Source: Synergistales bacterium (GTDB lineage: Bacteria > Synergistota > Synergistia > Synergistales > JAFGMB01). Taken from it: a stretch of 64,000 nucleotides of DNA. The translations under genes and the position numbers were made by a program. Under the pieces are notes generated by a model. The model ran no database searches. It saw only the letters and a program-made list of their open reading frames with translations, and had not been told where the DNA came from. Location of the stretch: the NCBI GenBank assembly GCA_963666205.1, contig OY762654.1, forward strand, positions 1,664,001 to 1,728,000, given 5' to 3'. Positions 38,164 through 59,480 of this stretch are shown here, piece by piece (position 1 is the first letter of the stretch; every line of letters starts with the position of its first letter).

Positions 38164-38242
38164 TCCTTTAACCTCCCTTGATATCTACTTTACAAATCGT
38201 TCTTATTCTTTGAGACCGCCATTCTTTTCGTAAGGCCATTCT

Positions 38243-38665
38243 TTATTGATTGAATCCTGTGATCTGATCTAACGGAATTTCCACACCATCTTCAATTCTT
38301 ACCTTTATGTTGTCGGCCTCAAATACCACCGACTGTACTGTCCCCGTTTTTATCCCGCCGTCTTCCAGATCTGCATAGGATATCTTCGAACCTACCATGG
38401 CAGAGGATGAAAATTTCATGTACTGTCCCAGTGATTCAAGCCTGTCTTCTATATTGGCAACCTGTTCAACCTGGCTGAATTGTGCCATCTGCGAAATGAA
38501 TTCGGATTGGTCCAGCGGCTCAAGGGGATCCTGATTCGCTAGCTCTGTAACCAGGATCTTTAAAAAGGCATCCTTGCCCAGAAGGCTGTTGCTGGCTGCA
38601 GTTTCAGTAGCAACCTGCCCGTTTATGTAAGTAGTTCCCACCGATCCCACCGGTGCTTCACTCAT
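38243..38665 (-). CDS. flgD: Hook capping protein FlgD
   Basis: LGKDAFLKILVTELANQDPLEP, QMAQFSQVEQ. Confidence 0.95.
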   Translation of the reverse strand: MSEAPVGSVGTTYINGQVATETAASNSLLGKDAFLKILVTELANQDPLEPLDQSEFISQMAQFSQVEQVANIEDRLESLGQYMKFSSSAMVGSKISYADLEDGGIKTGTVQSVVFEADNIKVRIEDGVEIPLDQITGFNQ

Positions 38666-41952: not shown

Positions 41953-43428
41953 TTGCTGGAAACCCTCGATCTCGATAAACACCTGTCAAAAAAAGATTTC
42001 AGGAATCTTTCTGAAAAATGTCAGATCAGGCTGGGAGTTCTTCAAAGGGAATTTCGTGACCATGGTATTCCGGTTATTCTCATATTTGAGGGTCTTGGTG
42101 CTTCCGGAAAGGGCAGGCTGATAAACAATCTTCTTCTTTGCTGGGATCCCAGGGGTTTTACCTACCACTATGTCAAACTATCCCAGGAAGAAAAAGACCG
42201 TTATCCCATGCTTTATCACTACGGCAGCAGAGCTCCTGCCAGGGGAAGGATAAGCATATTCGGCAGATGCTGGTATAGGGAGATCCTGGACAGGGGCGTT
42301 GAAAAAGGATTTGAAGACCAGTTTTTCAGGGATGGCATTGTAATGGCAGATGCCTTTGAAAGGCAGCTTGCTGCAGATGGGACCCTTGTTCTCAAATTTT
42401 TTCTTCATATAGATAGAAAGGAACAGAAAAAAAGGTTAAAGGAGAGAGAAAAAGACCCGGCCAGCGCCTGGGCAGTGACTGATTATGACTGGAATCAGAA
42501 CCGTGATCACAAACAATATGTCAAGACACTCGAAACGATATTTCAGAAAACGGACAGTGAATATGCTCCATGGACAATAGTTGAGGCTACGGACTGGAGA
42601 TTTGCCACATGTAAAATTCTTTCAACGGTGGAGAATGCCATGAAAGAACGTCTTTCCGGAAAAGTACTTTCAACGCCACCCAGCACGGTCCTTCCTGAAG
42701 AAGTTTCTATGATCACGTCGGTCCTGGACAATCTTGATCTGACAAAGGATCTCATCGGCAATGAATATAAGAAAGAACTTGAAAAATCTCAGGAACTCCT
42801 CCACTCCCTTGAACTGGAGATTTTCCACAGAGGGTTACCAGTTATAACACTTTTCGAGGGAATAGATGCCGCAGGCAAGGGTGGCGCCATAAAGCGTCTT
42901 GCCCAGTGTCTCTACCCCCGGAATTATGAGGTGGTTCCCGTTGGAGCTCCAAATGAGTGGGAGCTGAACCACCATTACCTCTGGAGGTTCTGGAGAGAAC
43001 TCCCAGCCAGGGGACAGATCAAGATCTTCGACAGGAGCTGGTATGGAAGGGTCCTTGTAGAAAGGGTTGAAAACCTGGCAACACCAGAGGAATGGAAAAG
43101 AGCTTATCGCGAGATCAACGAGATGGAAGAGGATCTGGATCGTTTCGGAGCCATAATAATAAAATTCTGGCTTCAGGTTGACAGGGATGAACAGCTTGCC
43201 CGTTTTGAGGCCCGCAAGGAAGATCCTGAAAAGGAGTGGAAACTCACTGAAGAGGACTGGCGAAACCGTGAGAAGTGGGACCAGTACATGGAGGCGGCCA
43301 GGGAGATGCTCTTCCGTACAAGTACAACCTATGCTCCCTGGACAGTGGTGGAGGCAAACTCCAAGCAGTATGCAAGAATAAAGGTCCTGAAGACTTTATG
43401 CGAGGCAGTGAAGAAAGCCCTGGGATGA
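41953..43428 (+). CDS. pap: Polyphosphate:AMP phosphotransferase (two-domain PPK2)
   Basis: FEGLGASGKG and FEGIDAAGKGG, FDRSWYGRVLVERVE, WKLTEEDWRNR. Confidence 0.93.
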   Translation: MLETLDLDKHLSKKDFRNLSEKCQIRLGVLQREFRDHGIPVILIFEGLGASGKGRLINNLLLCWDPRGFTYHYVKLSQEEKDRYPMLYHYGSRAPARGRISIFGRCWYREILDRGVEKGFEDQFFRDGIVMADAFERQLAADGTLVLKFFLHIDRKEQKKRLKEREKDPASAWAVTDYDWNQNRDHKQYVKTLETIFQKTDSEYAPWTIVEATDWRFATCKILSTVENAMKERLSGKVLSTPPSTVLPEEVSMITSVLDNLDLTKDLIGNEYKKELEKSQELLHSLELEIFHRGLPVITLFEGIDAAGKGGAIKRLAQCLYPRNYEVVPVGAPNEWELNHHYLWRFWRELPARGQIKIFDRSWYGRVLVERVENLATPEEWKRAYREINEMEEDLDRFGAIIIKFWLQVDRDEQLARFEARKEDPEKEWKLTEEDWRNREKWDQYMEAAREMLFRTSTTYAPWTVVEANSKQYARIKVLKTLCEAVKKALG

Positions 43429-43437: not shown

Positions 43438-43444
43438 AATTCTG

Positions 43445-43547
43445 GATTGCCGATTTTAGATTTTGGATTAAAATCATCAGGTCAAAAACCAGAAACAAAA
43501 ACCAGAAACAAAAACCCTTCAGGCCGGGCAGACCATCGCCCGGCTTG
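43445..43547 (+). repeat. Trailer repeat copy 1 (after ppk2, before the first cassette)
   Basis: GATTGCCGATTTTAGATTTTGGATTAAAATCAT...GCCGGGCAGACCATCGCCCGGC, with a 13-bp internal tandem duplication. Confidence 0.9.
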
Positions 43548-43594
43548 ATCTCTAATAAATAGTTTCTATGGGGTGTGCTTCGAAGAATCGATCT

Positions 43595-43658
43595 GTGACC
43601 TGAGTCCCTAAATGTTAGTCCAAATGTCCCGGCACATGAAAGAGAAATCGGGTATATT
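43595..43658 (+). promoter_or_regulatory. Paired operator plus -10 box, cassette 1
   Basis: GTGACCTGAGTCCC-N8-AGTCCAAATGTCCC-N22-TATATT. Confidence 0.65.
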
Positions 43659-43702
43659 GATATCTATTATTCCTGTACTTTCTAAAAGTCGCTCAACCTT
43701 AT

Positions 43703-43847
43703 ATGAAGTAAAAGCAAAACCGTCGAAAGGCGGTGACGCAAAGCCACGGGTCTAAAGCCTCAAAAGGAAATGATCGCCGGGTTGCCGATGCAGTTCATTT
43801 GCCCTTTATGTGTATTATCTCCGGGCAGAAAGGTTCGGGGATTTTTT
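43703..43847 (+). ncRNA. c-di-GMP-I (GEMM) riboswitch, A20 variant, with terminator
   Basis: AAGCAAAACCGTCGAAAGGCGGTGACGCAAAGCCACGGGTCTAA...GATCGCCGGGTTGCCGA; terminator 43817-43847. Confidence 0.92.
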
Positions 43848-44041
43848 ATTCTGTTTTAAAAGAACGTTATAATTCCGAGAAAAAGTATAATTTTTTGCAC
43901 ATTCTCTTCCATACTCCTGACAATTCATCACTGACAAAGTACCTGTTCAGGTTTATTTCAGGAAATTCAATTTTTCCGAAGTACGCCTGATTTTTAATTA
44001 TGATTACTTTCAAATTTTCATGAAGAGGAGATGAACTTTAA

Positions 44042-46723
44042 ATGAAAAATTTAAGAATCTTGAAGTTGTTGTTAGTTCTTTCAATTGTATTTCTTATGAG
44101 TGTTTCAACAGGATTTGCTTCTTCGCATGTAGTAACGAATCTGGATGGTGGAACGGAAGTGCCTGGTTCGCTGAGAAACATTTTGCTCTATGTCGTTCCA
44201 GGTGATTTAGTAACCTTTCCGGATGGTTTTAGCGGAACTATTAACCTTACCGGGCAGATATTTCTAACCCAGGATATTACTATTCAGGGACCCTGGGAGG
44301 GGTTGATCACTGTAAGTGGGTCTTTTATTGAACCTGCTAGTCTGATCCAGGTTGGCTATGGGGTAAATGCTCAGATATCGGGTCTTACATTTGCAAATGC
44401 AAATGCTGGAATCCAGGACGGTGCAGCGATCTCCAATGCTGGTAATCTTAGATTAACTGAATGTTCATTCCTGGGAAACCAGGCAGCTCGTGGAGGGGCA
44501 GTTTATAACGGTACAGGCTTAATTGACCCTGTGGCCTCAATGGATATTTTCGACTGCCAGTTTTGGGGCAATCAATCTGATTCCGGTGGAGCCATATATA
44601 ACGAAGGAGATCTCTCTGTAGAGAGCTGCGATTTTACCGGCAACCAGGCTCTTACCAGTGATGGTGGCGCCATATCCAACCATGGCAGCGCGTCATTAAC
44701 ATGGTGCAACCTGACCGGTAACACGATGACATCAACTTTCATGTCCGGTGGAGGTGCCATATCTAACTATGATGCCCTGGTGCTGGATTCCTGCGTGCTT
44801 GAAAACAATCAGGCCCTTAATAACCGCAATGGTGGAGCAATATACAGTTACAATGCGGAGGGCGGTACTTTCCTCAACAACTGTACTCTTAAAGGAAACA
44901 GTGCAGGTTCCGGCGGGGCCATACGAAACCAGGATGCAGAAAATTACCATAGCGAAGGGATTTCTCTAAGTCTTACAAATTGTATTTTGGAAAATAACGT
45001 GGCTCAATATGGCGGGGGGATTTACAGTAATCCCCAATATAACAAAACGATCCTCACAAACTGTATCATAGCCGGGAATACTGCAACAGTATCAGCAGGA
45101 GGCATCTCCAATGGCAACAACCAGCTTGAGATGAGAAAGTGTACAGTCAGCGGGAATATTGCCGGTTCCTCTGGTGGGGGAATATATAACTCCATTTATT
45201 CTGATAATTCTGCCTTGAGACTCTGGAACTCCACTATTACTGGAAATATTGTTTCAACTGACCAGGGAGATGGTGGTGGAGGTGCTTGTAATGTTCAAGG
45301 GACCTTCCAGACTACAAATTGTACTATTACCGGAAACTCTTCCCCTAAAGGCGGAGGATTATCATTTCTGAATGGATATGTTGTCCTGAAAAACACCATA
45401 GTAGCCTTTAACGAAGGTACCGTTTCCAGGGATATTTATGTTGATCCTTCCGGTTCTGCAGAATGTGCAATAAACAATGTTGTCAACAATCTGGTAGGAG
45501 TGGATCCTGATCCTGCTAGCTGGTTTGGCAGATCTCAAACAAATATCGTACTCTCAGGTGACATTGCCTCAACGGATGTATTTTCCGGGATCGAGGAAGG
45601 TCCCGAGGTTGGAGCTCCGGGTAATACAGAAAAAATGCAGGTTCTTGCTCTTAAGGCGGGTTCCATAGCTATTGATGCCGCACATTGGTTCGATCTTTTT
45701 GGAAAACTTGTATCAGAAGACCAGCGCGGAGTTTCCAGGCCTCAGGGAGATTATAATGACATCGGAGCTTTCGAACGTGAATTGGCAACCTACACCATAA
45801 CCGCCACTTCTTCAGCTGGAGGAACTATTTCCCCGGTATCAGCGGATGTTCCAGAGGGAATGGATCAGTCCTTCACGATAACCCCCTACGACGGTTTTGT
45901 CATAGAGGAACTTTATGCTGACAGGCAAAGAGTCGATTTTATTGCCCAGGGCGATACCTACATCTTTAATAATGTTTCGTCAAATCACGAACTTGAAGCC
46001 AGCTTTATGGTAGACCCTGCCATGATGGAAGATGCAGGGATTGAAGATTTTGGTATAACGGGAACGGACAAAGGACCCCTTGCAGACCCTGTAGCTATAA
46101 CTAAGCAGGACCTGCTTTCTATCAGTGTGGAAAAAGTGGACTTGGCTGAACTTGGTGCAGGCATACCAGAGGGGAATTTTGTGACCGGCCTTTCCTTAGA
46201 GATGGAATTTGATTCACCTGATATGGGAAATGCAGTCACCCAGGTGGATCTGGTGTTGGAAATATCCAGAGACCTTCTCGGTACAGATACATGTGCTGCC
46301 ATCGATGCAGGAGACGACCTGGAAGAGGCATTCTTTGAAAACGTGTCCCTGTATAAAATAGTTAGTCCGGATGTGTATGACCTTTTCGAAGTTGCATCAG
46401 AGGATCAGGATCCCTATGATTTCTTTGAAGTATCCAGTGATGACAGTGGTTATTATGTGTCCATGATTCTAGTCATAGCCGATGAAACTGCGCCAGAGGG
46501 AGAAGAATGCGTTCAGGCCCTTTTGGAAGGGCAGGATAGGTTCTTCTTTGTCTATGATGGAACTAAGGACGGCTGTTTCACAGATCCCATAGTGGCGGCA
46601 ATAAAAACTGCAGACGAGATTACAGAAAGCGGTACAGGCGGTGGAGGCAGCTGCAACGTGGGGACCTTACCCTCAGCATTCGGGCTTCTCATGGTGCCGT
46701 TACTCTTCCTGCTTCGCAGGTAA
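44042..46723 (+). CDS. Surface protein: signal peptide, Pmp-like GGAI/FxxN beta-helix, choice-of-anchor-Q-like segment, InlB-B-like repeat, Synergist-CTERM
   Basis: Repeated GGAI(Y/S)N and FxGN; DQRGVSRPQG..DIGAFE; tail GGGGSCNVGTLPSAFGLLMVPLLFLLRR. Confidence 0.9.
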   Translation: MKNLRILKLLLVLSIVFLMSVSTGFASSHVVTNLDGGTEVPGSLRNILLYVVPGDLVTFPDGFSGTINLTGQIFLTQDITIQGPWEGLITVSGSFIEPASLIQVGYGVNAQISGLTFANANAGIQDGAAISNAGNLRLTECSFLGNQAARGGAVYNGTGLIDPVASMDIFDCQFWGNQSDSGGAIYNEGDLSVESCDFTGNQALTSDGGAISNHGSASLTWCNLTGNTMTSTFMSGGGAISNYDALVLDSCVLENNQALNNRNGGAIYSYNAEGGTFLNNCTLKGNSAGSGGAIRNQDAENYHSEGISLSLTNCILENNVAQYGGGIYSNPQYNKTILTNCIIAGNTATVSAGGISNGNNQLEMRKCTVSGNIAGSSGGGIYNSIYSDNSALRLWNSTITGNIVSTDQGDGGGGACNVQGTFQTTNCTITGNSSPKGGGLSFLNGYVVLKNTIVAFNEGTVSRDIYVDPSGSAECAINNVVNNLVGVDPDPASWFGRSQTNIVLSGDIASTDVFSGIEEGPEVGAPGNTEKMQVLALKAGSIAIDAAHWFDLFGKLVSEDQRGVSRPQGDYNDIGAFERELATYTITATSSAGGTISPVSADVPEGMDQSFTITPYDGFVIEELYADRQRVDFIAQGDTYIFNNVSSNHELEASFMVDPAMMEDAGIEDFGITGTDKGPLADPVAITKQDLLSISVEKVDLAELGAGIPEGNFVTGLSLEMEFDSPDMGNAVTQVDLVLEISRDLLGTDTCAAIDAGDDLEEAFFENVSLYKIVSPDVYDLFEVASEDQDPYDFFEVSSDDSGYYVSMILVIADETAPEGEECVQALLEGQDRFFFVYDGTKDGCFTDPIVAAIKTADEITESGTGGGGSCNVGTLPSAFGLLMVPLLFLLRR

Positions 46724-46824
46724 GTCGATTTTAGATTGCCGATTTTAAATTTTGGATTAAAATCATAAGTTCAAAAACCAGAAACAAAAACCCTTCAAGC
46801 CGGGCAGATTAATTGCCCGGCTTG
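45839..46824 (+). repeat. ~985-bp near-identical direct repeat, copy A
   Basis: Matches 49859-50844 at offset 4020 with about a dozen substitutions. Confidence 0.95.
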
Positions 46825-46825
46825 C
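46724..46825 (+). repeat. Trailer repeat copy 2 with hairpin
   Basis: GTCGATTTTAGATTGCC...CAAGCCGGGCAG..TGCCCGGCTTG. Confidence 0.92.
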
Positions 46826-46949
46826 TGGTATTCTAATTGAGAAGATCTTTTATCTCTGATTCAATAGTTTCATCAGAAATGTTCTCTCCAGGATTCTCCA
46901 GGTTTATGAATACGTTGGAAATTAGGACAGAACTGTTTTCCATATTATA

Positions 46950-47013
46950 GGGACTACCGCTTTTCCCCGTTGACACATGAGTCCCGGTAGATCTTCAACA
47001 AAGGATTTATATT
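46950..47013 (+). promoter_or_regulatory. Paired operator plus -10 box, cassette 2 (no riboswitch follows)
   Basis: GGGACTACCGCTTT-N8-GACACATGAGTCCC-N22-TATATT. Confidence 0.55.
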
Positions 47014-47313
47014 TTTCTTTTGATTTTTGTGATATTCTTAATATGATATTTTTATATACGGCAGGCCTCTGTTCTTAAGAGACGCTCAATAACTACATGA
47101 ATATCCCTCCCAATTTATATTGAATAATTTCCTTAGCATTAAACCTGTCTATTCCTGTTTTTCACATAGCTTTACAGCCCCGGTTTCATTAGTGTGAGGG
47201 CTTTATTTTGAGTTGCATAAGCAGGTACATAGGTACAGCTCTGTAATACAGCCTGCTATTCCATAGGGCAAGTTCAATTTTTTTTATTAAATCCTTACTG
47301 GGAGGGATGAATA

Positions 47314-47787
47314 ATGAAAAGATACAGAATTGCCGTGGTACTGGTATTTTTATTCTGTCTTTGCGGCACTTCCTTCGGAGCGCTATCTTCTGCAATCAAC
47401 CCTAATCCTTCGAATGGGGCTATCGGAATTAACCGTGAGGGTCTTGTAATTGACTGGGACTGTAGTGAGTTCGGAACCTTCGATCTTTTCTTCGGGACCT
47501 CTCCGGGCGACCTTCTTCTTATTGCTGAAGACCTTGCATCTGCCGTCTACTTTGATCTTGATACTCTCGATCCTGAAACGACCTACTATTGGCGGGTGGA
47601 TGTGGTATCTTCTGACACTATTACTACGGTTACAGGGGATATCTGGAATTTCACCACATGGGCTTCGGCGCCTGACGACGATGATGACGATAGCGGTGGA
47701 GGAGGCGGAGGCGGCTGCAACACTGGTTTGATACCCGCAGCATTCGGATCTCTGCTGGTGCCCTTGATGTTCCTGCTGAGGAAATAG
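47314..47787 (+). CDS. Small surface protein: signal peptide, one Fn3/Ig-like domain, Synergist-CTERM
   Basis: PNPSNGA...FDLFFGT...TTYYWRVD...GDIWNFTT; tail GGGGGGCNTGLIPAAFGSLLVPLMFLLRK. Confidence 0.88.
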   Translation: MKRYRIAVVLVFLFCLCGTSFGALSSAINPNPSNGAIGINREGLVIDWDCSEFGTFDLFFGTSPGDLLLIAEDLASAVYFDLDTLDPETTYYWRVDVVSSDTITTVTGDIWNFTTWASAPDDDDDDSGGGGGGGCNTGLIPAAFGSLLVPLMFLLRK

Positions 47788-47791
47788 GTTT

Positions 47792-47813
47792 GATGGGCTG
47801 AAGCACACCCTGC
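47792..47813 (-). repeat. Degenerate REP-like palindrome
   Basis: Reverse complement GCAGGGTGTGCTTCAGCCCATC resembles 55455-55480. Confidence 0.5.
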
Positions 47814-47899
47814 GATTGTCAAAGTAAACTGATTTTAGATTAAACCATAAGTTCCAAAACAAGATAAGCAAGCCGGGCAGAACATCGCCCGGCTTGCTT
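47814..47899 (+). repeat. Trailer repeat copy 3 (diverged) with hairpin
   Basis: GATTTTAGATTAAACCATAAGTTCC...AAGCAAGCCGGGCAGAACATCGCCCGGCTTGCTT. Confidence 0.8.
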
Positions 47900-47946
47900 G
47901 ATGTTTTTAGCTATTTTCCAGATGTTAAATAGCTGAAGCTCAATCT

Positions 47947-48010
47947 GTGACCTGAGTCCCTAAATGTTAGTCCATATGTCCCGGCACATGAAAGAAAAAT
48001 CGGGTATATT
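47947..48010 (+). promoter_or_regulatory. Paired operator plus -10 box, cassette 3
   Basis: GTGACCTGAGTCCC-N8-AGTCCATATGTCCC-N22-TATATT. Confidence 0.65.
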
Positions 48011-48054
48011 AATATGAATTATTTCTGTACTTTCTATAAATCATTCAACTTTAT

Positions 48055-48197
48055 ATTCAGCAAGGGCAAAACCGTCGAAAGACGGTGACGCAAAGCCACG
48101 GGTCTAAAGCCTCAAAAGGAAATGATCGCCGGGTTGCCGATGCAGTTCATTTGCCCTTTATGAGTATTATCTCCGGGCAGAAAACCAGGGGATTTTT
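48055..48197 (+). ncRNA. c-di-GMP-I riboswitch (G20) with terminator
   Basis: GGGCAAAACCGTCGAAAGACGGTGACGCAAAGCC...GGGTTGCCGA. Confidence 0.95.
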
Positions 48198-48397
48198 ATT
48201 AACCTGTGTTGAAAGGAGGAGAAAATTACCCTGAAATTAAGCAAAGTTCCCCTGCAGGAGAAAGATGATCGAGAGAAGAAAATCTTTACGAAAATAATGT
48301 TGGAATCCATATGATGTTATCCCTGTCTTGATTTACCAGGTCAGTAATTATTTGTCATTAAAAAATCAGATTTAGTTGCAAAGGAGATGGACTTGAG

Positions 48398-50743
48398 ATG
48401 ATGAATTTTAGAACTGTGAAGTTGTTATTAGCTCTTGTAATTGTATTTTTTGTTGGTATTTCAGCAGGATGGGCTGATACACTTACTGTAACAAACTCCT
48501 CCGATTCTGGAGCAGGATCCCTGAGACAAGCAATTGCTGATGCAGCTGAGGGAGATACTATAGATTTTAGCAGTGATTTAGAGAGTATCACCCTGTCTGG
48601 AACGCTGGTTATAAGCAAAAACATCACCATTATGGGATCCGGTGCTGGCACCCTTTCCATCAATGGGGGTGGCAACTGCAGGATATTTGAGATCGAGAGT
48701 GGAGCCTCAGTTGATATTTCCAACCTTTCCGTAGTAAGCGGTGATGCGACAGTATATGCAAGAGGTAAGAATGGCGGAGGGATATTGTTAGGGAACAATG
48801 CTGCACTCAGCTTGAATGGCTGTACCTTTGAAGATTGCAGGGCCAGACTTGGCGGAGCTATTACCTGCGTAAATGGAAGCAGTACTAATATTGAAAACTG
48901 CACTTTCAAAAACAATGAAGCTGTTGGAGATGCAAACAGTATCCCAACAGAAGGTTACGGTGGCGGGATCTATACTGGCGCAAACAGCGCCTCTTTAACC
49001 TACCTTTCTGTAACTGATTCAAATTTTTACGGCAATAAAGCCAGGGATTACGGTGGCGGTATTTACAATATCAGGGACTCAAATGCTACTGTTACAAACT
49101 GCAATTTCAGCGAAAACACTGCCGGAGTTAACGGCGGCGGTATTTGGAATTACTCAGAAAGTCTAACCCTTTCCGGATGTACCTTCAGCAATAATAGTGT
49201 AACTGATGGGGGTGGCGGAATATATAATGTTTCTCCAGGTCTTGCCGTGCTCCTGAACTGTACTATTACACGCAATATAGCCTCATCAGAAGATGGAAAT
49301 GGGGGCGGGGGGATTTACAATAGATCCGGGTACCTTAAAATCTCAAACTGTACTATTTCCGATAATTATTCTCCTAAAGGTGCCGGGATATCGGGTAGGG
49401 ATGGTACCGTTGCCCTGAAAAATACCATAATCGCCTTTAACAATGGTGAAGTTTCCAGAGATGTTTATATTATTCCTGGTGGTTCCTGTGTATATGGTAA
49501 TGGCTCAGGTTACAACCTTGCAGGAAACGTTCCTGAAAGCTGGTTCATGAATTATGGGGATATCATCCTCTCTGCCGATATTACCTCATCCGATGTTTTT
49601 TCAGGTTTAGAAAACGGTCCTGAAGCCGGTGCTCCTGGGGATACAGAAAAAATGCAGGTACTTGCACTGAAGGCTGGGGCATTGGCGGTGGAGGCAGCCC
49701 ATTGGTTCGACCTCCGTGAACAATTAGTTTCCGAAGACCAGCGCGGTGTATCAAGGCCCCAGGGATATTACAATGACATAGGTGCTTTCGAGCTTGAGCT
49801 TGCATCCTATTCCATAACCACCTCCTCTACTTCCGGCGGCGGAAGCATTTCTCCCGAGTCAGCGGATGTTCCAGAGGGAATGGATCAGTCCTTCACGATA
49901 ACCCCCTACGACGGTTTTGTCATAGAGGAACTTAATGCTGACAGGCAAAGAGTCGATTTTATTGCCCAGGGCGATACCTACATCTTTAATAATGTTTCGT
50001 CAGACCATGAACTTGAAGCCAGCTTTATGGTAGACCCTGCCATGATGGAAGAAGCAGGGATTGAAGATTTTGGTATAACGGGAACGGACAAAGGACCCCT
50101 TGCAGACCCGGTAACTATCACTAAGCAGGACCTGCTTTCTATCAGTGTGGAAAAAGTGGACTTGGCTGAACTTGGTGCAGGCATACCAGAGGGGAATTTT
50201 GTGACCGGCCTTTCCTTCGAGATGGAATTTGATTCACCCGATATGGGAAATGCAGTCACCCAGGTGGATCTGGTGTTGGAAATATCCAGAGACCTTCTCG
50301 GTACAGATACATGTGCTGCCATCGATGCAGGAGACGACCTGGAAGAGGCATTCTTTGAAAACGTGTCCCTGTATAAAATAGTTAGTCCGGATGTGTATGA
50401 CCTTTTCGAAGTTGCATCAGAGGATCAGGATCCCTATGATTTCTTTGAAGTATCCAGTGATGACAGTGGTTATTATGTGTCCATGATTCTAGTCATAGCC
50501 GATGAAGCTGCGCCAGAGGGAGAAGCATGCGTTCAGGCCCTTTTGGAAGGGCAGGATAGGTTCTTCTTTGTCTATGATGGAACTAAGGACGGCTGTTTCA
50601 CAGATCCCATAGTGGCGGCAATAAAAACTGCAGACGAGATTACAGAAAGCGGTACAGGCGGTGGAGGCAGCTGCAACGTGGGGACCTTACCCTCAGCATT
50701 CGGGCTTCTCATGGTGCCGTTACTCTTCCTGCTTCGCAGGTAA
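48398..50743 (+). CDS. Surface protein paralogous to 44042-46723 (Pmp-like beta-helix, Synergist-CTERM)
   Basis: VTNSSDSGAGSLRQAI, GGGIYN repeats, DQRGVSRPQG, identical tail. Confidence 0.9.
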   Translation: MMNFRTVKLLLALVIVFFVGISAGWADTLTVTNSSDSGAGSLRQAIADAAEGDTIDFSSDLESITLSGTLVISKNITIMGSGAGTLSINGGGNCRIFEIESGASVDISNLSVVSGDATVYARGKNGGGILLGNNAALSLNGCTFEDCRARLGGAITCVNGSSTNIENCTFKNNEAVGDANSIPTEGYGGGIYTGANSASLTYLSVTDSNFYGNKARDYGGGIYNIRDSNATVTNCNFSENTAGVNGGGIWNYSESLTLSGCTFSNNSVTDGGGGIYNVSPGLAVLLNCTITRNIASSEDGNGGGGIYNRSGYLKISNCTISDNYSPKGAGISGRDGTVALKNTIIAFNNGEVSRDVYIIPGGSCVYGNGSGYNLAGNVPESWFMNYGDIILSADITSSDVFSGLENGPEAGAPGDTEKMQVLALKAGALAVEAAHWFDLREQLVSEDQRGVSRPQGYYNDIGAFELELASYSITTSSTSGGGSISPESADVPEGMDQSFTITPYDGFVIEELNADRQRVDFIAQGDTYIFNNVSSDHELEASFMVDPAMMEEAGIEDFGITGTDKGPLADPVTITKQDLLSISVEKVDLAELGAGIPEGNFVTGLSFEMEFDSPDMGNAVTQVDLVLEISRDLLGTDTCAAIDAGDDLEEAFFENVSLYKIVSPDVYDLFEVASEDQDPYDFFEVSSDDSGYYVSMILVIADEAAPEGEACVQALLEGQDRFFFVYDGTKDGCFTDPIVAAIKTADEITESGTGGGGSCNVGTLPSAFGLLMVPLLFLLRR

Positions 50744-50844
50744 GTCGATTTTAGATTGCCGATTTTAAATTTTGGATTAAAATCATAAGTTCAAAAACCA
50801 GAAACAAAAACCCTTCAAGCCGGGCAGATTCATCGCCCGGCTTG
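49859..50844 (+). repeat. ~985-bp near-identical direct repeat, copy B
   Basis: See 45839-46824. Confidence 0.95.
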
Positions 50845-50845
50845 C
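50744..50845 (+). repeat. Trailer repeat copy 4
   Basis: Same as copy 2 apart from the hairpin loop region. Confidence 0.92.
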
Positions 50846-50881
50846 TTGCACTAAATAACTTTTATTTCAATCCATGGATCT

Positions 50882-50945
50882 GGGACCTGAGTCCTGAAAT
50901 GTTGAGACATAAGTCCCGATAAAAGATTACAAAATACGATATAGT
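50882..50945 (+). promoter_or_regulatory. Paired operator plus -10 box, cassette 4
   Basis: GGGACCTGAGTCCT-N8-GAGACATAAGTCCC-N22-TATAGT. Confidence 0.65.
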
Positions 50946-50988
50946 GAGAACTGTTATAGCTTTTATCTGAAAAGTCACCCAACTTTAT

Positions 50989-51131
50989 ATTCAGCAAGGG
51001 CAAAACCGCCGAAAGGCGGTGACGCAAAGCCACGGGTCTAAAGCCTCAAAAGGAAATGATCGCCGGGTTGCCGATGCAGTTCATTTGCCCTTTATGAGTA
51101 TTATCTCCGGGCAGAAAGATCCGGGGATTTT
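50989..51131 (+). ncRNA. c-di-GMP-I riboswitch (G20) with terminator
   Basis: GGGCAAAACCGCCGAAAGGCGGTGACGCAAAGCC...GGGTTGCCGA. Confidence 0.95.
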
Positions 51132-51276
51132 GTTATTTACAGGTGTTTCTCTAATTGAATTCTCAACCATTTTCTAATTGAGGAGAGGTTCATCCTGTCC
51201 ATATCTTTTGAGAGTTGAAGATCTGATATTTGAATCATTACATAATTCCATACTTTTTCTAAAAAGGAGAGATACC

Positions 51277-53598
51277 ATGTTGATGAGAAGACTTAGTATT
51301 GCACTGGCCATGATATTGCTGTTTTCATTCTCCGCATTTGCAGTTGAGATGAGTGTTGAAACCGTTGATGAAGGAAGTACCCAGGGCTACAGCTCTTCCC
51401 TTGCAATTGATGAGGACGGTAACCCCCACATATCTTTTAAAGCAGATTCACAGATCCTCAAGTATGCTTATTTCGATGGAGATGAATGGGTTACACAGAA
51501 CGTGGTGGAGGGATCTAGTTATATTAACCAGACCTCAATCGCCCTGGATTCAGAAGGAAACCCATGTATTGCCTTTCAGAGAGGCGCCTATCCCGACAGC
51601 TCTGTAATGTTCACATCCTTCAACGGCAGCATCTGGGAGACAGTATCAGTTGATCAGGGTTACTCCGGTACGGGAAATACCCTCTCCCTCGCATTCGACA
51701 ATAACGGTGATCCGGGTATTGCTTATACTTATTACGATCAGGAGGATTCATCTGTTCTCAGGTTCGCAAAAAGGGAAAATGGCTCCTGGTCTCGGGATAC
51801 CGTTAATTCCGACGACCATTCTTATTCAAACAAATGCACCCTTGCATTCAGCAGTACAGGTGTGCCCTTCATAGGTTATGGATATTTTACTGATACCTAT
51901 GGAGATACCTGTAATATGTATTATTCATGGCTCGATGAGAATACCGCTCAGTGGCAGATGGAGTTAGTAGACGATCCTATGACCAAAACGGCTTATCAAA
52001 CTTCCACCATGGCTCTTGATACCAACGATAATCCTCACTTCGTTTATTCTGCCAATGATGACGACTCTCTTAGATATGCATTCAAAAATGGAGAAAGTTT
52101 TTCTTTTTTGACTGTTGAAAACGCAGACAGGATTGGACACTACTCATCCCTTGTAATTGATGATGAAAACGTTCCCCATCTTGCATACTGTGCTTTTTCG
52201 GGCGAAAGTGACCTGAAATATGGAGTTCTTCAGGGAAATTCATGGGTAACAAGTGTTGCCGATTCCCAGGGTGATGTGGGAACCTTCCCCTCTATAGCTC
52301 TTGATCCGTCGGGCAATCCCTGTGTCAGTTATCTCGAAGCAGATGATTATGACCTTCAGTATGCCTGTAAAAATGGACAGGAATGGGATGTGCAGACCGT
52401 TCCCATCGAGGGAAAGAGAAGAGGTTCCTGCCCCGAGATAGCCCTGAATTCAAAGGGTGAGCCCAGCCTGGTCTATATGCTTCAGGATACAAGAGCCATG
52501 CTGTTTGCCTCAAAGGATGGAAACGAATGGGAAAGATCCACAATAATTTCCTTCGAAGACCTGGACTCGGGCCATTATTTAAGGGATCCTTCCTACATTA
52601 TCGATGAAGATGATAATGATCATCTGCTTTTTGTATCAGACGATGTGCTTACATATGCGGTAAGGACAACTGATGCATGGGACTTTGAATCCATATCTTC
52701 CGATATTGAGTGCTGGGAATGTGATCTTGCTATGGATAGTTCAGTATGTCCCCATGCTGCTTTTAATATGAGTGAATATCTTGTTATTCCCAGCGGAATG
52801 TCCTCCTCTGCACAGTACACAAGCAATCTGTGGTACGGCACAAAGATCGATTCGGGCTGGGAATTTGAGAGAATTGACATCGGGCGGGTGGATAATATCG
52901 ATATGGTTCTTTCTGAAGATGAAAAAGCCTTCATATGCTATTTCGAAGATAACGAAGATGAGTTGAAGTATTGTGTTCAGAACGAGGTCAGTTGGGACAT
53001 TGGTGTAGTTTCTTCAGATCTGAGGGATGTCCATTCTCTTTCCCTCGAAATGGATTCCTCCGGCATTCCTCACCTGGCCTTTATTTCAACGAATCAGACT
53101 TCCGAAAGTGTTCCACTCAGAGAATCTGAAGTCGTAAGTTATTCGTATACATTGAACCATGCCATATTCTCTGGCAATGATTGGATCATTGAGAAAGTAG
53201 ATGATCTGAAATTTAGTGGAGGTGTAAGGCAGATCAAAATGGTCTTTGACTCCCTTGATAATCCTCAGATAGTATACGGGACAGGTTCTTTCGGGATGCA
53301 GGGGGGAACCGATTCTGACATTAAGGCTGAATTACGATACGCCTGGTTTGACGGTGAGTCCTGGAACAAGGTGATGCTGGATGAAAATTACCTTACCTCC
53401 TTTGCGTCATATTCCACTGTGGTCCTCAATTCAAATGATGTGCCTCACATAGCATATTTCACCGGCACAGGTTTGAATTATGGTACTTTAACATTCGAGG
53501 ATGTTGCAACCGGTGGCGGCAGCACCTGTAACGTGGGGGTCTTCCCGGCAGCATTCGGGCTTCTGATGGTACCGTTACTCTTCCTGCTGCGCAGGTAA
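51277..53598 (+). CDS. Surface beta-propeller-repeat protein with Synergist-CTERM
   Basis: AAGGAG RBS before ATG 51277; repeated SLAxDxxGxPHIxY..L(K/R)YA...W blades; tail GGGSTCNVGVFPAAFGLLMVPLLFLLRR. Confidence 0.88.
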   Translation: MLMRRLSIALAMILLFSFSAFAVEMSVETVDEGSTQGYSSSLAIDEDGNPHISFKADSQILKYAYFDGDEWVTQNVVEGSSYINQTSIALDSEGNPCIAFQRGAYPDSSVMFTSFNGSIWETVSVDQGYSGTGNTLSLAFDNNGDPGIAYTYYDQEDSSVLRFAKRENGSWSRDTVNSDDHSYSNKCTLAFSSTGVPFIGYGYFTDTYGDTCNMYYSWLDENTAQWQMELVDDPMTKTAYQTSTMALDTNDNPHFVYSANDDDSLRYAFKNGESFSFLTVENADRIGHYSSLVIDDENVPHLAYCAFSGESDLKYGVLQGNSWVTSVADSQGDVGTFPSIALDPSGNPCVSYLEADDYDLQYACKNGQEWDVQTVPIEGKRRGSCPEIALNSKGEPSLVYMLQDTRAMLFASKDGNEWERSTIISFEDLDSGHYLRDPSYIIDEDDNDHLLFVSDDVLTYAVRTTDAWDFESISSDIECWECDLAMDSSVCPHAAFNMSEYLVIPSGMSSSAQYTSNLWYGTKIDSGWEFERIDIGRVDNIDMVLSEDEKAFICYFEDNEDELKYCVQNEVSWDIGVVSSDLRDVHSLSLEMDSSGIPHLAFISTNQTSESVPLRESEVVSYSYTLNHAIFSGNDWIIEKVDDLKFSGGVRQIKMVFDSLDNPQIVYGTGSFGMQGGTDSDIKAELRYAWFDGESWNKVMLDENYLTSFASYSTVVLNSNDVPHIAYFTGTGLNYGTLTFEDVATGGGSTCNVGVFPAAFGLLMVPLLFLLRR

Positions 53599-53700
53599 GT
53601 CGATTTTAGATTGCCGATTTTAGATTTTGGATTAAAAATATAAGTTCAAAAACCAGAAACAAAAACCCTTCAAGCCGGGCAGATTCATCGCCCGGCTTGC
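53599..53700 (+). repeat. Trailer repeat copy 5
   Basis: Near-identical to copies 2, 4 and 6. Confidence 0.92.
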
Positions 53701-53736
53701 TTGCACTAAATAACTTCTATTTCAACCCATGGATCT

Positions 53737-53800
53737 GGGACCTGAGTCCTGAAATGTTGAGACATAAGTCCCGATAAAAGATTACAAAATACGATATAGT
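53737..53800 (+). promoter_or_regulatory. Paired operator plus -10 box, cassette 5
   Basis: GGGACCTGAGTCCT-N8-GAGACATAAGTCCC-N22-TATAGT. Confidence 0.65.
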
Positions 53801-53843
53801 GATATCTGTTATAGCTTTTATCTGAAAAGTCACCCAACTTTAT

Positions 53844-53987
53844 ATTCAGCAAGGGCAAAACCGTCGAAAGGCGGTGACGCAAAGCCACGGGTCTAAAGCC
53901 TCAAAAGGAAATGATCGCCGGGTTGCCGATGCAGTTCATTTGCCCTTTATGAGTATTATCTCCGGGCAGAAAACCCGGAGATTTTTT
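53844..53987 (+). ncRNA. c-di-GMP-I riboswitch (G20) with perfect terminator
   Basis: Aptamer as above; ATCTCCGGG-CAGAAAA-CCCGGAGAT-TTTTT. Confidence 0.95.
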
Positions 53988-54135
53988 GTTTGAGGAGAAC
54001 AATTTCTCTAATGGAATTCAGAATAGATTTTCACATTTTCCCGGGAGGTGGTCGGAACAACTTGTTTTTTAAGGGATGGAGCTTTATTTCAGTTAAATTA
54101 AACCTTTCATAAACTTTTATAAGGAGAGATGAATA

Positions 54136-55332
54136 ATGAAAAGATTAAGTATTTTCCTTGTCCTGTTATTCTGCATGTTCTGTATTTGCGGCACCTCCTT
54201 TGGATATGTGGTCTACTCCGAGGATTTTGAGGCTTTGGATGGAGGATATATCCATAGCGGGACTGGAGATTGCTGGCAATGGGGAACCCCGACAGCATGG
54301 CCCAATGCAGCGGCTTCAGGCACGAATTGCTGGGGAACCAATCTGGCTGGCAACTATGCGAACAACGCAAATTTCTCTCTTGTTTCGGGCTGGATAGATC
54401 TTACTGCCTACCCGGCAGGGACACCACTGACCCTCAAATGGAAACAGGCCCTGGACATAGAAAGCTCAACCTGGGACAACGCTTCCTGCTCGGGTGAAAC
54501 CGATGTCCCTGAGACTGAAATTTTTTGGCAGCACAGTGGGAGTAGCATTACTTACGGCTGGACAGAGGTTTCTGCTGACATCTCCTTCGCTGCAGGTAAA
54601 CAGTTCAGGTTAACCTGGAGATTTTCTACTGACGGCAGTATTACATACGACGGTCTTTTTATCGATGATGTGATGATCGAAGTCTCAATATCCCCAGCTA
54701 CGGATCCTGATCCGGAAGATGGTTCCAGCGGCAATTCATACGAAGATCCTGTCCTTTCCTGGGTATGTGAATCGGCTGACTCTTTCGACCTGTATTTCGG
54801 AACCGCCTTGGATGATCTTGACCTGATCTCTGAAGATATGACAGTGACCTCCTGCGACCTGCCCCTTCTTGAGCAGGGTACAACCTATTACTGGCGGGTG
54901 GATGTCGCATCTGGAGATATAGCTGTATCTGGAGACCTGTGGTCCTTCACTACCCTCCTGGAGAAACCGGCTTCCCCGGATCCCTCGAACGGAGCGGATG
55001 ATGCAGTAAATGCGGATGTAGTCCTCTCCTGGGAGCATCTTTCAGATAACGTTTCTTTCGATGTCTATTTCGGACTGACTTCGGATGATATGGAAGTCCT
55101 TGCGACCGGGATCTCTGAAGGATCGGTGGTTTTAGAGGATGATCTGGATTTCCTAACTGAATATTTCTGGAGAGTTGATGTCAGGACAGAAGATGCAGCG
55201 GAATCCGGAGACCTCTGGAGCTTTACCACAGCGGATGAGAGGGTGTCTGGTAGTGGAGGATGCAACGCCGGTTCAATACCGGCAGCATTCGGGCTTCTCA
55301 TGGTACCGTTACTCTTCCTGCTTCGCAGGTAA
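54136..55332 (+). CDS. Surface protein: signal peptide, jelly-roll/MAM-like domain, two Fn3-like domains, Synergist-CTERM
   Basis: EDFE...WQWGTP...NCWGTNL..Y; two YxWRVD...GDLWSFTT repeats; tail GSGGCNAGSIPAAFGLLMVPLLFLLRR. Confidence 0.88.
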   Translation: MKRLSIFLVLLFCMFCICGTSFGYVVYSEDFEALDGGYIHSGTGDCWQWGTPTAWPNAAASGTNCWGTNLAGNYANNANFSLVSGWIDLTAYPAGTPLTLKWKQALDIESSTWDNASCSGETDVPETEIFWQHSGSSITYGWTEVSADISFAAGKQFRLTWRFSTDGSITYDGLFIDDVMIEVSISPATDPDPEDGSSGNSYEDPVLSWVCESADSFDLYFGTALDDLDLISEDMTVTSCDLPLLEQGTTYYWRVDVASGDIAVSGDLWSFTTLLEKPASPDPSNGADDAVNADVVLSWEHLSDNVSFDVYFGLTSDDMEVLATGISEGSVVLEDDLDFLTEYFWRVDVRTEDAAESGDLWSFTTADERVSGSGGCNAGSIPAAFGLLMVPLLFLLRR

Positions 55333-55433
55333 GTCGATTTTAGATTGCCGATTTTAGATTTTGGATTAAAATCATAAGTTCAAAAACCAGAAACAAAAAC
55401 CCTTCAAGCCGGGCAGACCATCGCCCGGCTTGC
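55333..55433 (+). repeat. Trailer repeat copy 6 (array right end)
   Basis: Hairpin loop AGACCATC identical to copy 1. Confidence 0.92.
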
Positions 55434-55454
55434 TCTTATCTTTAGGAATCGACC

Positions 55455-55480
55455 GCAGGATGGGCTTCAGCCCATCCTGC
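55455..55480. repeat. REP-like palindrome / possible bidirectional terminator
   Basis: GCAGGATGGGCT-TC-AGCCCATCCTGC. Confidence 0.6.
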
Positions 55481-55491
55481 TTTCCGGTCTT

Positions 55492-57090
55492 TCACGATTG
55501 AGGAAGTACTTCCACTTTGACTTCGAAATTTTCTCCGAAGGTTTTTTTAAAGAACTTCTGCTGGTTCTCCAGGGCCCAGAGCTCTATTTCATAACCCTCA
55601 AGGGCCTTTATATTCAACACAAGTCTTCGGGCGTGACGAGAAAACCATGCCTCCTGTATCAACTGATGATGACTGCGGTCAAGGCTTTCTGCTATTGACA
55701 GGAGCATGCTCAGTACCTTTACCGTTTCCCTGGATCGTGGATCAAGGCCTGAAAACTCCGGATGTTTGTTCCTGGGGTATTTTCTGCTGTGATAAAAGGC
55801 GGTGCTGGCCATTATTGCTATCTCACGGGAATAAAAGCCAAGAAGCTCCGCATTTCTGATGATGTAATAGGTATGGGCGTGGTGGTTGACGAAGGAGAGG
55901 AACATTCCCACATCATGGAGCATGGCAGAATATCTGAGAAGTTCTCCCTCTTCATCCCCTAGACTGTGAAGCGCCGATTCCCGGCCACTTTCGAACAACT
56001 GGACTGCCAGTCTCGAAATATGCCGGCCATGGGTTTCGTTGAAACCGCAGCTCCTTCCAAGCTGGAGAACGCTCTGTTCGCGCACTGATATCCGAGGTTT
56101 GGCTTCAAGATAGCCGTATTTCCCCCGGATAAGGTAATCATGTAGCAGTCCGTGTCTCAGGTTTCGTCGGCTTATATGGATCTCCTCAAGTCCCATCTCC
56201 TCCATCAGGGTGTGAAGGATTGCGGCACCTGGAATGATAATGTCGGCCCTCCGGGGGTTCATTCCGCGGACCTTTGCAAGATCCTGCAAAGAAAGTGAAC
56301 ATAACAGTTTTACGGTATTGTCAAGTTCCTGGAGAGAGAGTACTTCCTGCCCCTCCTCGACATCGATTCGCTTTCCCTGGATATTGTTGCGCCTGGCTAT
56401 TTCATAAAGTGTCTCGATGGTCCCCGAGCTGCCTATTGCAAGGTGGGATTCCGTATCCCTGAACCGCTGTATGCTTCTGAGAGCGGAATTGCGGACATGC
56501 TGCTGAAGCAGGTCATAATTATCCATATGAACGGGGCCCTGATCTTCTTCAGGAAAGAACATGTTCTTCAGCCTTACCGCGCCGAGTTTCATGGAATCCA
56601 GGGAAAAGTATTCGAACTGATTTCCCAGAATTGTTTCTGTACTTCCTCCGCCGATGTCCAGAAACATGGCAGTTTTATCCCCGAGATGAAATCCGCTTGA
56701 TACACCCAGGTATATGAGCCGCGCTTCCTCGAGGCCCGAAATGACATTCAGATCAAGGTCTGCTTCGTTCTTTACCCTGTCAATAAACTCATCCCGATTC
56801 TGGGCATCCCTGGTTGCGGATGTTGCAACTGCCCACAGGTCTTTTGCGCCCAGGTTGGCGGACATCTCGACAAAACGCTTCAAGACCAGTATGGTACGGT
56901 CCATGGCTTCCTTGCGGAGCACACCCCGGGTGAACTCCCCTTCTCCAAGGCGTACCATGACCTTATGCTGGTTAATGATGGTATATGATCGATTGGGGTT
57001 GAGGCGGACCACCATAAGTCTGACGGAGTTTGTTCCCAGGTCGATGAGTCCTACCACGTTCCCCGATTCCACATTCAGATTTGGTCCCAC
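55492..57090 (-). CDS. ppx: Exopolyphosphatase Ppx/GppA with HD domain
   Basis: IDLGTNSVRL, ATSATRDA, ISGLEEARL, DIGGGSTE, LHDVG. Confidence 0.93.
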   Translation of the reverse strand: MGPNLNVESGNVVGLIDLGTNSVRLMVVRLNPNRSYTIINQHKVMVRLGEGEFTRGVLRKEAMDRTILVLKRFVEMSANLGAKDLWAVATSATRDAQNRDEFIDRVKNEADLDLNVISGLEEARLIYLGVSSGFHLGDKTAMFLDIGGGSTETILGNQFEYFSLDSMKLGAVRLKNMFFPEEDQGPVHMDNYDLLQQHVRNSALRSIQRFRDTESHLAIGSSGTIETLYEIARRNNIQGKRIDVEEGQEVLSLQELDNTVKLLCSLSLQDLAKVRGMNPRRADIIIPGAAILHTLMEEMGLEEIHISRRNLRHGLLHDYLIRGKYGYLEAKPRISVREQSVLQLGRSCGFNETHGRHISRLAVQLFESGRESALHSLGDEEGELLRYSAMLHDVGMFLSFVNHHAHTYYIIRNAELLGFYSREIAIMASTAFYHSRKYPRNKHPEFSGLDPRSRETVKVLSMLLSIAESLDRSHHQLIQEAWFSRHARRLVLNIKALEGYEIELWALENQQKFFKKTFGENFEVKVEVLPQS

Positions 57091-58472: not shown

Positions 58473-58481
58473 CTTCCAATA

Positions 58482-59477: not shown

Positions 59478-59480
59478 GAG

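Follow-up and report, generated by a model that had tools for sequence, protein, structure and literature searches.

How can five neighbouring genes encode surface proteins of unrelated folds and nevertheless begin and end in shared DNA? This question is raised by a locus in the genome of a Synergistales bacterium, which is assembled as a single 2.95-Mb contig (OY762654.1); the window analysed here is the 64,000-nt stretch at positions 1,664,001-1,728,000 of this contig, and coordinates refer to the window unless they are marked as genome coordinates. A sequence-only reading of the window had described five co-oriented cassette genes between ppk2 and ppx, and the ORF calls bear out five such genes on the + strand. 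Taken as a whole, and judged from sequence comparison, the locus is probably best explained as a hypervariable surface-protein locus that is inserted into a polyphosphate gene cluster and whose cassettes are exchanged by recombination. The relatives used for comparison are G001, from the same genus, G003, from another genus, G002, and the metagenome contigs L127 and L128. The five genes, g1-g5, and the genes flanking the array are the following.

41953-43428: ppk2 (TIGR03708, 596 bits), the left flank of the array.
44042-46723, + strand: g1, 893 aa, with a signal peptide, a PMP-repeat beta-helix, choice-of-anchor Q, the shared C-terminal domain and the sorting tail.
47314-47787, + strand: g2, 157 aa, with a signal peptide, one Fn3-like domain, an Asp/Gly linker and a Synerg-CTERM tail.
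48398-50743, + strand: g3, 781 aa, with a signal peptide, a beta-helix, choice-of-anchor Q, the shared C-terminal domain and the same tail as g1.
51277-53598, + strand: g4, with a signal peptide, tandem beta-propellers and the tail; its likely start codon is the ATG at 51277, preceded by an AGGAGAG site.
54136-55332, + strand: g5, 398 aa, with a signal peptide, a MAM/choice-of-anchor J-like domain, two Fn3-like domains and a Synerg-CTERM tail.
55492-57090: ppx, convergent to the array and its right flank.

Three unrelated folds had been read among the passengers, and this is well supported for the beta-helix and the beta-propeller, by profiles and a structural model, and moderately for the Fn3/jelly-roll group. 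The PMP repeat PF02415 matches g1 with 34.4 bits (cut-off 20.6) and g3 with 18.9 bits, under the cut-off, g3 also having a Beta_helix match of 50.9 bits; choice-of-anchor Q is present in both (NF041518, 44.3 bits in g1 and 33.4 bits in g3, cut-off 25), and the two proteins have a C-terminal region of about 340 residues in common that is 82-100% identical. They are expected to work like PMP-repeat beta-helix surface proteins and not like Pmp autotransporters. The autotransporter reading was rejected, as no autotransporter beta-barrel was found in Pfam or NCBIfam and the C-terminus is a sorting tail with a single transmembrane (TM) segment. For g4, which has a BNR_4 match of 44.3 bits, the AlphaFold model (three-sequence alignment, mean pLDDT 74.4) shows all-beta blades, and Foldseek relates it to tandem or double propellers with TMq values of up to 0.56 and to seven-bladed Photorhabdus lectins with TMt values of 0.72-0.74. 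The single domain of g2 is 40-43% identical to the two tandem domains of g5; its Fn3/Ig-type profile matches are weak, and the fn3 clusters of the Protein Atlas, with best scores of 0.84 (below 0.9), are leads. The N-terminus of g5 gives borderline MAM/choice-of-anchor J (NF038128) matches, and its single-sequence AlphaFold model, with a mean pLDDT of 40.7, is unusable. In a contig of metagenome run X1, the sides of g5 recur at 90% and 97% identity and 357 other letters replace the 366 nt at 54374-54741, the MAM-like domain; this one contig hints at domain-level replacement inside the g5 passenger.

The 5' modules, which comprise the promoter and, in four cassettes, a riboswitch for cyclic di-GMP (c-di-GMP), are located as follows.

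43588-43702, + strand: g1 promoter module (class I), with GTCCC at 43604 and 43626 and the -10 box TATATT at 43653-43658; 91% identical to the module of the propeller gene C of G001.
43703-43848, + strand: g1 aptamer and platform, the aptamer at 43703-43789 (82.3 bits), followed by a terminator hairpin at 43817-43842 and a T-run.
46981-47013, + strand: g2 promoter remnant, a lone proximal GTCCC half-site, a 22-nt spacer and TATATT.
47940-48054, + strand: g3 promoter module (class I), with GTCCC at 47956 and 47978 and the -10 box at 48005-48010.
48055-48200, + strand: g3 aptamer and platform, the aptamer at 48055-48141 (85.7 bits), followed by a terminator at about 48169-48193 with one mismatch.
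50874-51136, + strand: g4 promoter module (class II), aptamer and terminator, with a GGGAC-N4-GTCCT palindrome, GTCCC at 50913 and the -10 box TATAGT at 50940-50945.
50989-51075, + strand: g4 aptamer (RF01051), with the terminator at 51103-51128.
53729-53992, + strand: g5 promoter module (class II), aptamer and terminator, the promoter being 98% identical to that of g4.
53844-53930, + strand: g5 aptamer (RF01051), with the terminator at 53958-53982.

The promoter modules lie about 45-100 nt 5' of each aptamer and contain a pair of GTCC[CT] sites spaced by about 22 nt, with a 22-nt spacer between the proximal site and a TATATT or TATAGT box and with no -35-like hexamer. The motif GTCC[CT]-N15-17-GTCCC-N20-24-TATAxT has six copies genome-wide, four of which are in the array and one before a g4 paralogue (1.557 Mb, 150 kb away); the same pattern has 0-1 copies in three shuffled genomes, and the motif was also found in G001, G003 and L127. 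Two classes can be distinguished, class I (g1 and g3, 90% identical) and class II (g4 and g5, 98% identical), with about 70% identity between classes and with the distal site of class II forming part of a GGGAC-N4-GTCC palindrome. A paired operator with a -10 box, which had been assigned to every gene, is thus present in g1, g3, g4 and g5, whereas in g2 it is reduced to the proximal half-site with the -10 box. The GEMM riboswitch that had been read in four of the five cassettes was recovered by covariance matches to RF01051 of 82.3-85.7 bits over the full model (1-87), the gathering score being 35 bits; upstream of g2, no RF01051 match was found in the Rfam search even at E<=10, and only chance-level snoRNA and sRNA matches appeared there. 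The aptamers are 93-99% identical to one another and the platforms 86-92%, and about 28-30 nt after the aptamer stands a GC-rich terminator hairpin with a T-run, which the scan detects in three of the four leaders, the g3 hairpin having one mismatch.

At the other end, all five proteins close with [G/S-rich]-C-N-x-G-..P.AFG.L.VPL.FLLR[RK], and the stop codon is followed by a trailer of about 105 nt built from ATTTTRG-type heptad repeats, an A-rich stretch and the GC-rich hairpin AGCCGGGC...GCCCGGCT.

43439-43551, + strand: trailer copy 0, directly after ppk2; 73-77% identical to the trailers of g1, g3, g4 and g5.
46724-46828, + strand: trailer 1, with the hairpin AGCCGGGC..GCCCGGCT.
47788-47905, + strand: the diverged g2 trailer, with a REP-like palindrome at 47792-47814 and a terminator-like hairpin at 47865-47900.
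50744-50848, + strand: trailer 3, from repeat comparison.
53599-53703, + strand: trailer 4, from repeat comparison.
55333-55437, + strand: trailer 5, followed by a REP-like palindrome at 55454-55481.

The last 90 coding nucleotides of g1, g3, g4 and g5 are 78-100% identical and their trailers 92-97%; the trailer hairpin is nearly specific to the array, which holds five of its seven genomic sites, and the heptad part is dispersed. The modules of g2 are only 56-72% identical to those of the other cassettes throughout. The description of the flanking modules as near-identical DNA consequently holds for the trailers and the aptamers, whereas the promoters fall into two classes and everything around g2 has diverged. 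A full-length trailer-like copy, 71% identical over 98 nt and including the hairpin AGCCGGGC..GCCCGGCT, was also seen at genome 1642030-1642126, 22 kb before the window. The REP-like palindrome GATGGGCTGAAGCCCATC, which follows g2 and g5, recurs in the interval of G001 at about 5490-5520, 14389-14412 and 14660-14685.

Recombination-driven exchange of the passengers, as the sequence-only reading had proposed, is supported by the reassortment seen in G001, by the chimeric structure of g1 and by the borders of a tract shared with L127. Comparison of the ppk2-ppx interval across relatives showed that the number and content of the cassettes differ in G001, G003 and L127. G001, whose ppk2 and ppx are 82% and 91% identical to those of this genome in protein and 82.6% and 86.3% in DNA, has four riboswitch cassettes (helix A, helix B, propeller C and an unrelated 704-aa protein D); G003 has one cassette, a propeller with a tail, preceded by the promoter motif and with no riboswitch upstream in Rfam even at E<=10; L127 has one riboswitch cassette; and in G002 no cassette adjoins ppx within the 8 kb examined. 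The collinear match of ppk2 with G001 takes in the first promoter and riboswitch and stops at 43848, the T-run of the terminator. Beyond this point, g1 resembles G001 gene B in its leader and N-terminus (71% in DNA) and gene A towards its C-terminus (78%), and the g1 protein is a three-part chimera, with residues 1-60 being 87% identical to G001-B, residues 172-386 about 60% identical to G001-A and residues 729-893 96-100% identical to g3. The 5' module of g4 is nearest to that of G001-D (81.9%), although g4 is the counterpart of C, whereas the stretch of g5 from the trailer through the promoter, riboswitch and leader to codon 12 matches that of the propeller gene C (83.4%), although the passengers are unrelated. 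The trailers are 92-97% identical within the genome versus 70-85% to the G001 trailers, and the aptamers 93-99% versus 82-91%; as the identity of the modules within the genome exceeds that of ppk2 and ppx between the species, gene conversion or a very recent spread inside this genome is indicated.

The second observation concerns g3 and the metagenome contig L127. The ppk2 and ppx genes of L127 are 73% and 70% identical in DNA to those of this genome, whereas 48061-50598 matches at 95.2%, and the exchanged part can be delimited.

48216-50582, + strand: laterally exchanged tract comprising the g3 leader, signal peptide and passenger, 91-99% and mostly 96-99% identical to L127 per 100 nt.

Between about 48216 and 50515, the 100-nt windows are 91-99% identical. 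On the 5' side, the tract begins immediately past the terminator T-run of the riboswitch, before which identity is 70-77% in aptamer and platform; on the 3' side, it ends beyond the invariant FFFVYDG segment, with about 160 nt left to the stop codon, and in the tail and trailer identity is about 50%. Since the tract takes in about 180 nt of non-coding leader, its identity cannot be put down to selection on the protein. L127 is roughly equidistant from this genome, G001 and G003 (72-74%), and it is 100% identical to L128, from a second assembly, over 9369 nt. No near-identical copy of g3 was found in 268 Synergistota genomes, where the best match has 60% protein identity; in a database of 5.8 billion proteins, the L127 protein was the only relative of at least 90% identity among the best 120 of 396 matches; and the g3 passenger had no megablast match in plasmid or phage collections. 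As the shared C-terminal domain of g3 is resident in this genus (g1, g3, G001-A and G001-B), the donor may be placed on this side and the L127 lineage would be the recipient.

Could the array instead be an ordinary family of tandem paralogues that arose by duplication, with flanks kept constant by purifying selection and no special role for recombination? The aptamer and the tail are functional elements of which conservation is expected, the promoter classes are common to both species, and g1/g3 and g2/g5 are true paralogue pairs, all of which would agree with such an origin. However, because passengers of unrelated folds share their flanks, simple duplication of whole genes is insufficient; the non-coding trailers are far more alike within the genome than to the sister species (85% at most), the partnership of module and passenger differs between species, and a 2.4-kb tract that includes a non-coding leader is 95% identical to a lineage with flanks of 70-73%. 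We therefore regard duplication without exchange as improbable.

A different possibility is a programmed, high-frequency cassette system, in which a site-specific or structure-specific enzyme encoded elsewhere would act on the trailer hairpin or on the REP-like palindromes, in an integron-like or REP/RAYT-like manner, and in which cassettes would be switched, excised or re-ordered within a population. The GC-rich hairpin at every cassette end, with its concentration in the array, is in line with this, as are joints between repeat copies in contigs from other samples (46754>47838, 47882>53686 and 55476>43590; further joints are 45781>49829 and 51131>54196). The comparison with sequencing runs was made with Logan contigs of X1, X3, X11 and X14, which break at the repeats and from which the cassette order here cannot be confirmed; the parts that these contigs leave uncovered, namely the g3 N-terminus (X1), g4 (X3) and g1 and g3 (X14), give no evidence of absence. 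The joints lie inside repeats and have sides of 30-50 nt, and since related strains occur in the metagenomes concerned, they may result from strain differences or paralogue mapping; given the short sides and the paralogous repeats, they are read as hints of strain differences and were not counted as excised circles or rearrangements. The X14 contigs, in which g4 and g5 have five and two differences and ppx 15-24, have a depth of 2-3 and were not used as evidence.

The absence of a dedicated recombinase, already noted in the sequence-only reading, holds: among 21 ORFs of at least 110 aa at 24-64 kb of the window outside the array, Pfam detected no integrase, transposase or other recombinase family. 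Nor were long inverted repeats seen, the REP-like inverted matches being two in number and short (23-26 nt); in contrast to integron cassettes, every unit brings a promoter of its own; and the breakpoints of the L127 tract lie away from the hairpin. A programmed system is accordingly considered very unlikely. Two specific forms were rejected: a shufflon or invertase system, as there are neither long inverted repeats nor an invertase family among the ORFs scanned, and an integron array, as no recombinase was found among the 21 ORFs and each cassette carries its own promoter motif. ComEC and DprA homologues are present in the genome; they are likewise present in most control genomes, so that they say little on natural competence. 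The exchange favoured here is taken to proceed on an evolutionary time scale, and no evidence for programmed switching within cells was found.

That the modules or the cassette order are products of mis-joined repeats is hardly credible. Short-read contigs of run X11, the probable source, do break at every repeated module, but the genome is a single contig, all passengers are found at 100% identity in the X11 contigs (0 other letters in seven of the eight listed pieces and 5 in the eighth), and the same architecture was assembled independently in G001 (on a 250-kb contig) and in L127/L128. Since the modules recur in independent assemblies, they are not artefacts, and the concern that the repeats might be such can be set aside.

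How would the cassettes be switched? In the alignment to the consensus, the aptamers have a GAAA tetraloop (GNRA) and every upper-case core position, including the GGCAAA / GACGCAAAGC / UGCC core. The residue before C13 of the consensus is G; we take it to be G20, a change of which to A marks variants specific for 3'3'-cyclic GMP-AMP. In free folds, the terminator is present and the downstream UUUGCCCUU segment is paired to AAGGGCAAA of the aptamer core, whereas in fold computations with the aptamer locked, the UUUGCCC segment pairs with GGGCAGA in the 5' arm of the terminator; as long as the 3' arm is lacking, this antiterminator hairpin is the most favourable structure, at -8.6 to -10.6 kcal/mol. 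The riboswitches are thus predicted, with somewhat better than even confidence, to be transcriptional ON switches.

The genome-wide RF01051 search that the sequence-only reading had called for gave 16 matches above the cut-off, nine of which precede proteins with the array-type tail: four in the array, a serial pair ahead of a single 748-aa gene and three others. Within the order, RF01051 matches occur in 11 of 41 genomes (this genome counted), and all five genomes of the family labelled f1 have 5-18 matches each. The serial pair lies at genome 633757-634466 (- strand), its two aptamers being about 620 nt apart before the 748-aa tail-bearing gene, and at the riboswitch genes at genome 636574 and 638759 the platforms seem to be translational, sequestering the Shine-Dalgarno sequence, and not of the terminator type. 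In this cluster at 629-641 kb, only the aptamers are alike (75-80%) and no tail or trailer modules are held in common, which implies that near-identity of the modules is not general to riboswitch-linked genes in this genome. A sixth family member outside the array, the 778-aa g4 paralogue at genome 1557453-1560168, has a weaker tail (19.8 bits), a class II promoter motif and an RF01051 match of 32.7 bits, under the cut-off of 35. Among the 10 GGDEF matches in the genome, a 461-aa GGDEF protein at genome 1164473-1165925 (- strand) is preceded by a c-di-GMP-I riboswitch with a terminator, possibly a feedback loop on c-di-GMP synthesis.

The tail had been assigned to the Synerg-CTERM sorting signal. 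As described (bioRxiv 10.1101/2023.06.07.544157), this signal is defined by a Gly/Ser cluster ending in an invariant Cys, a TM segment that follows with no spacer and has an invariant Pro in a Leu-rich stretch, and an Arg cluster; Synergistales are the order in which it is found, and the CPBP protease MrtS is linked to it, as is a divergent type II secretion system (T2SS). All features of the definition are present in the five tails, but only two of them reach the TIGR04564 cut-off of 22.5 bits when isolated (g2 with 25.5 bits and g5 with 23.4 bits, the whole proteins giving 20.7 and 17.6 bits); g4 scores 9.9 bits, and g1 and g3 have no match. The tail DNA of these three genes is 78-83% identical to that of g5. 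As all features are present below the cut-off, the array tails are taken as a lineage-specific variant of Synerg-CTERM, CN[VAT]G..P.AFG.L.VPL.FLLR[RK], an assignment made from the residues themselves. The corresponding machinery is encoded in the genome, with the predicted sorter MrtS at 229 bits (NF040589, cut-off 130) and the GspC of the Synerg-type T2SS at 280 bits (NF041616, cut-off 200). A second group of Synerg-CTERM genes, at genome 1982391-1988173, has two tail and trailer copies with 99.4% identity over 154 nt (1985852-1986005 versus 1987939-1988092) and other copies at 75-76%, with no riboswitches present; it suggests that the 3' module is shared there also.

On the side of ppk2, the array is adjoined by genes that may bear on its regulation.

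24831-38665, - strand: flagellar gene cluster, upstream of the array.
39149-40696, - strand: protein with GGDEF, the diguanylate cyclase domain (PF00990, 132.5 bits), and DUF1638, 1.3 kb from ppk2; a possible local source of the riboswitch ligand.

Taken together, the working of the locus may be envisaged as follows. Each cassette would be its own transcription unit, with an activator presumably binding the GTCCC repeats at about -40 and -61 of a promoter without a -35 box. In the ligand-free leader, UUUGCCC would pair with GGGCAAA of the aptamer core and the terminator would form, whereas in the leader with a c-di-GMP-locked aptamer, UUUGCCC would pair with GGGCAGA of the 5' arm of the terminator and termination would be prevented. 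The products may then be exported by Sec, processed by MrtS and displayed via the Synerg-type T2SS, as family knowledge suggests, so that high c-di-GMP would switch on varied surface binders next to the flagellar cluster, following a sessile-versus-motile logic. The exchange itself is seen in the comparisons to begin and end at the constant modules, namely promoter and riboswitch on the 5' side and tail, trailer and hairpin on the 3' side; foreign DNA would be taken up by some route, and recombination or gene conversion between shared modules would follow. As the comparisons show, passengers were replaced, reshuffled and subjected to gene conversion, in some cases together with leader and signal peptide, and this took place inside the genome, between the sister species and, at least once, across lineages of which the flanking genes are about 27-30% diverged; general homologous recombination is the presumed means. 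The outcome would be an assortment of surface modules that differ in what they bind or catalyse and have the c-di-GMP switch and the mode of anchoring in common. A more far-reaching proposal, which we regard as doubtful, is that the riboswitch/terminator leader and the tail/trailer form a recombinase-free docking site that captures incoming DNA via short conserved stretches. An incoming passenger, for example from related Synergistota, would then be c-di-GMP-controlled and surface-anchored at once, populations should be polymorphic in cassette number and content here and at similar loci such as the array at 1.98 Mb, and a natural plug-and-play surface display would extend across genera.

Several observations weigh against exchange between constant, regulated ends as set out here. 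The arms that would have recombined between g3 and L127 are little alike (77% in the aptamer and 55% in the tail), and the modules may therefore mark the borders that selection tolerates instead of supplying homology. The G001 trailers are only 71-74% alike among themselves, which means that strong homogenisation occurred in one species only, and the trans-specific promoter classes show that not everything was homogenised. Exchange in progress is not visible in the data, which are contigs with joints in repeats. With the aptamer locked, the full terminator is still favoured over the antiterminator by 0.8-6.9 kcal/mol, so that the ON prediction rests on a kinetic argument. Three of the tails (g1, g3 and g4) fail the TIGR04564 HMM, and an adhesin function of the passengers, with the locus as a display platform, is presumed from their domains.

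How does such a locus compare with known systems? In the babA/babB/hop genes of Helicobacter pylori and in pneumococcal pspA/pspC, conserved ends enclose variable middles, chimeras arise by general homologous recombination or gene conversion, with no dedicated recombinase, and alleles move between loci and strains. The array differs from these families in that its constant ends are mostly not protein or not passenger, and in that its middles are unrelated folds and not alleles of one protein. The Clostridioides difficile genes CD2831 and CD3246 are dispersed single genes with class II riboswitches and sortase/LPXTG-type signals. The array, by contrast, has class I riboswitches, Synerg-CTERM tails with MrtS and a T2SS in a diderm, tandem genes, shared DNA modules and exchanged passengers. 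The likeness to C. difficile lies in the control of C-terminally sorted surface proteins by a c-di-GMP riboswitch in the leader, as reported for CD2831 and CD3246 (PMC4591827), and in a motile-to-sessile logic, as the flagellar cluster and the GGDEF gene adjoin the array. With the described Synerg-CTERM/MrtS system the array shares the tripartite tail, the Synergistota host and the MrtS and GspC matches above cut-off; it departs from it by the three tails under the HMM cut-off, and the available part of that description (bioRxiv 10.1101/2023.06.07.544157) mentions neither riboswitch control nor modular arrays.

The choice-of-anchor principle, in which a single type of passenger is joined to various anchors, is also recognizable, since distant relatives of g3 bear T9SS, dockerin or SLH anchors (best 120 of 396 matches); that concept refers to domain combinations across phyla, whereas the array shows recombination borders and a recent transfer at the nucleotide level in one locus. 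Integron arrays resemble it in being tandem, co-oriented single-gene units with a structured repeat after each, but here no integrase was found among the ORFs scanned nearby, each unit has its own promoter, with a riboswitch in four of five, and the exchange borders are not at the hairpin. The sequence-only reading knew of no description of such an array, and none was found among the papers listed in searches on c-di-GMP riboswitches, Synerg-CTERM or tandem adhesin genes. The known parts, namely riboswitch-controlled sorted surface proteins, Synerg-CTERM/MrtS and mosaic surface-protein families with conserved ends, are combined here; what appears to be new is a tandem array in which a promoter and riboswitch leader and a tail and trailer are shared ends around unrelated passenger folds, together with replacement between lineages bounded by these ends. 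The locus would thereby keep one input (c-di-GMP) and one anchoring route (Synerg-CTERM/MrtS) while the displayed part changes, as seen at nucleotide resolution. It offers a defined, regulated set of substrates for the little-studied Synerg-CTERM system, suggests that family f1 of the Synergistota has a surface regulon under c-di-GMP and may serve as a natural template for modular surface display. For annotation, a caution follows, as lineage variants of the tail go undetected at the TIGR04564 cut-off.

The surroundings of the array contain some further features. Within the flagellar cluster, a 973-aa flagellin-like protein (33270-36191) and a sigma-70-family factor (31085-31951) were observed. 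Beyond the array, at 57075-61646 on the - strand, further polyphosphate genes follow, encoding a metallophosphoesterase-HD protein, a CHAD protein and ppk1, so that the polyphosphate genes (ppk2, ppx, metallophosphoesterase-HD, CHAD and ppk1) are interrupted by the array.

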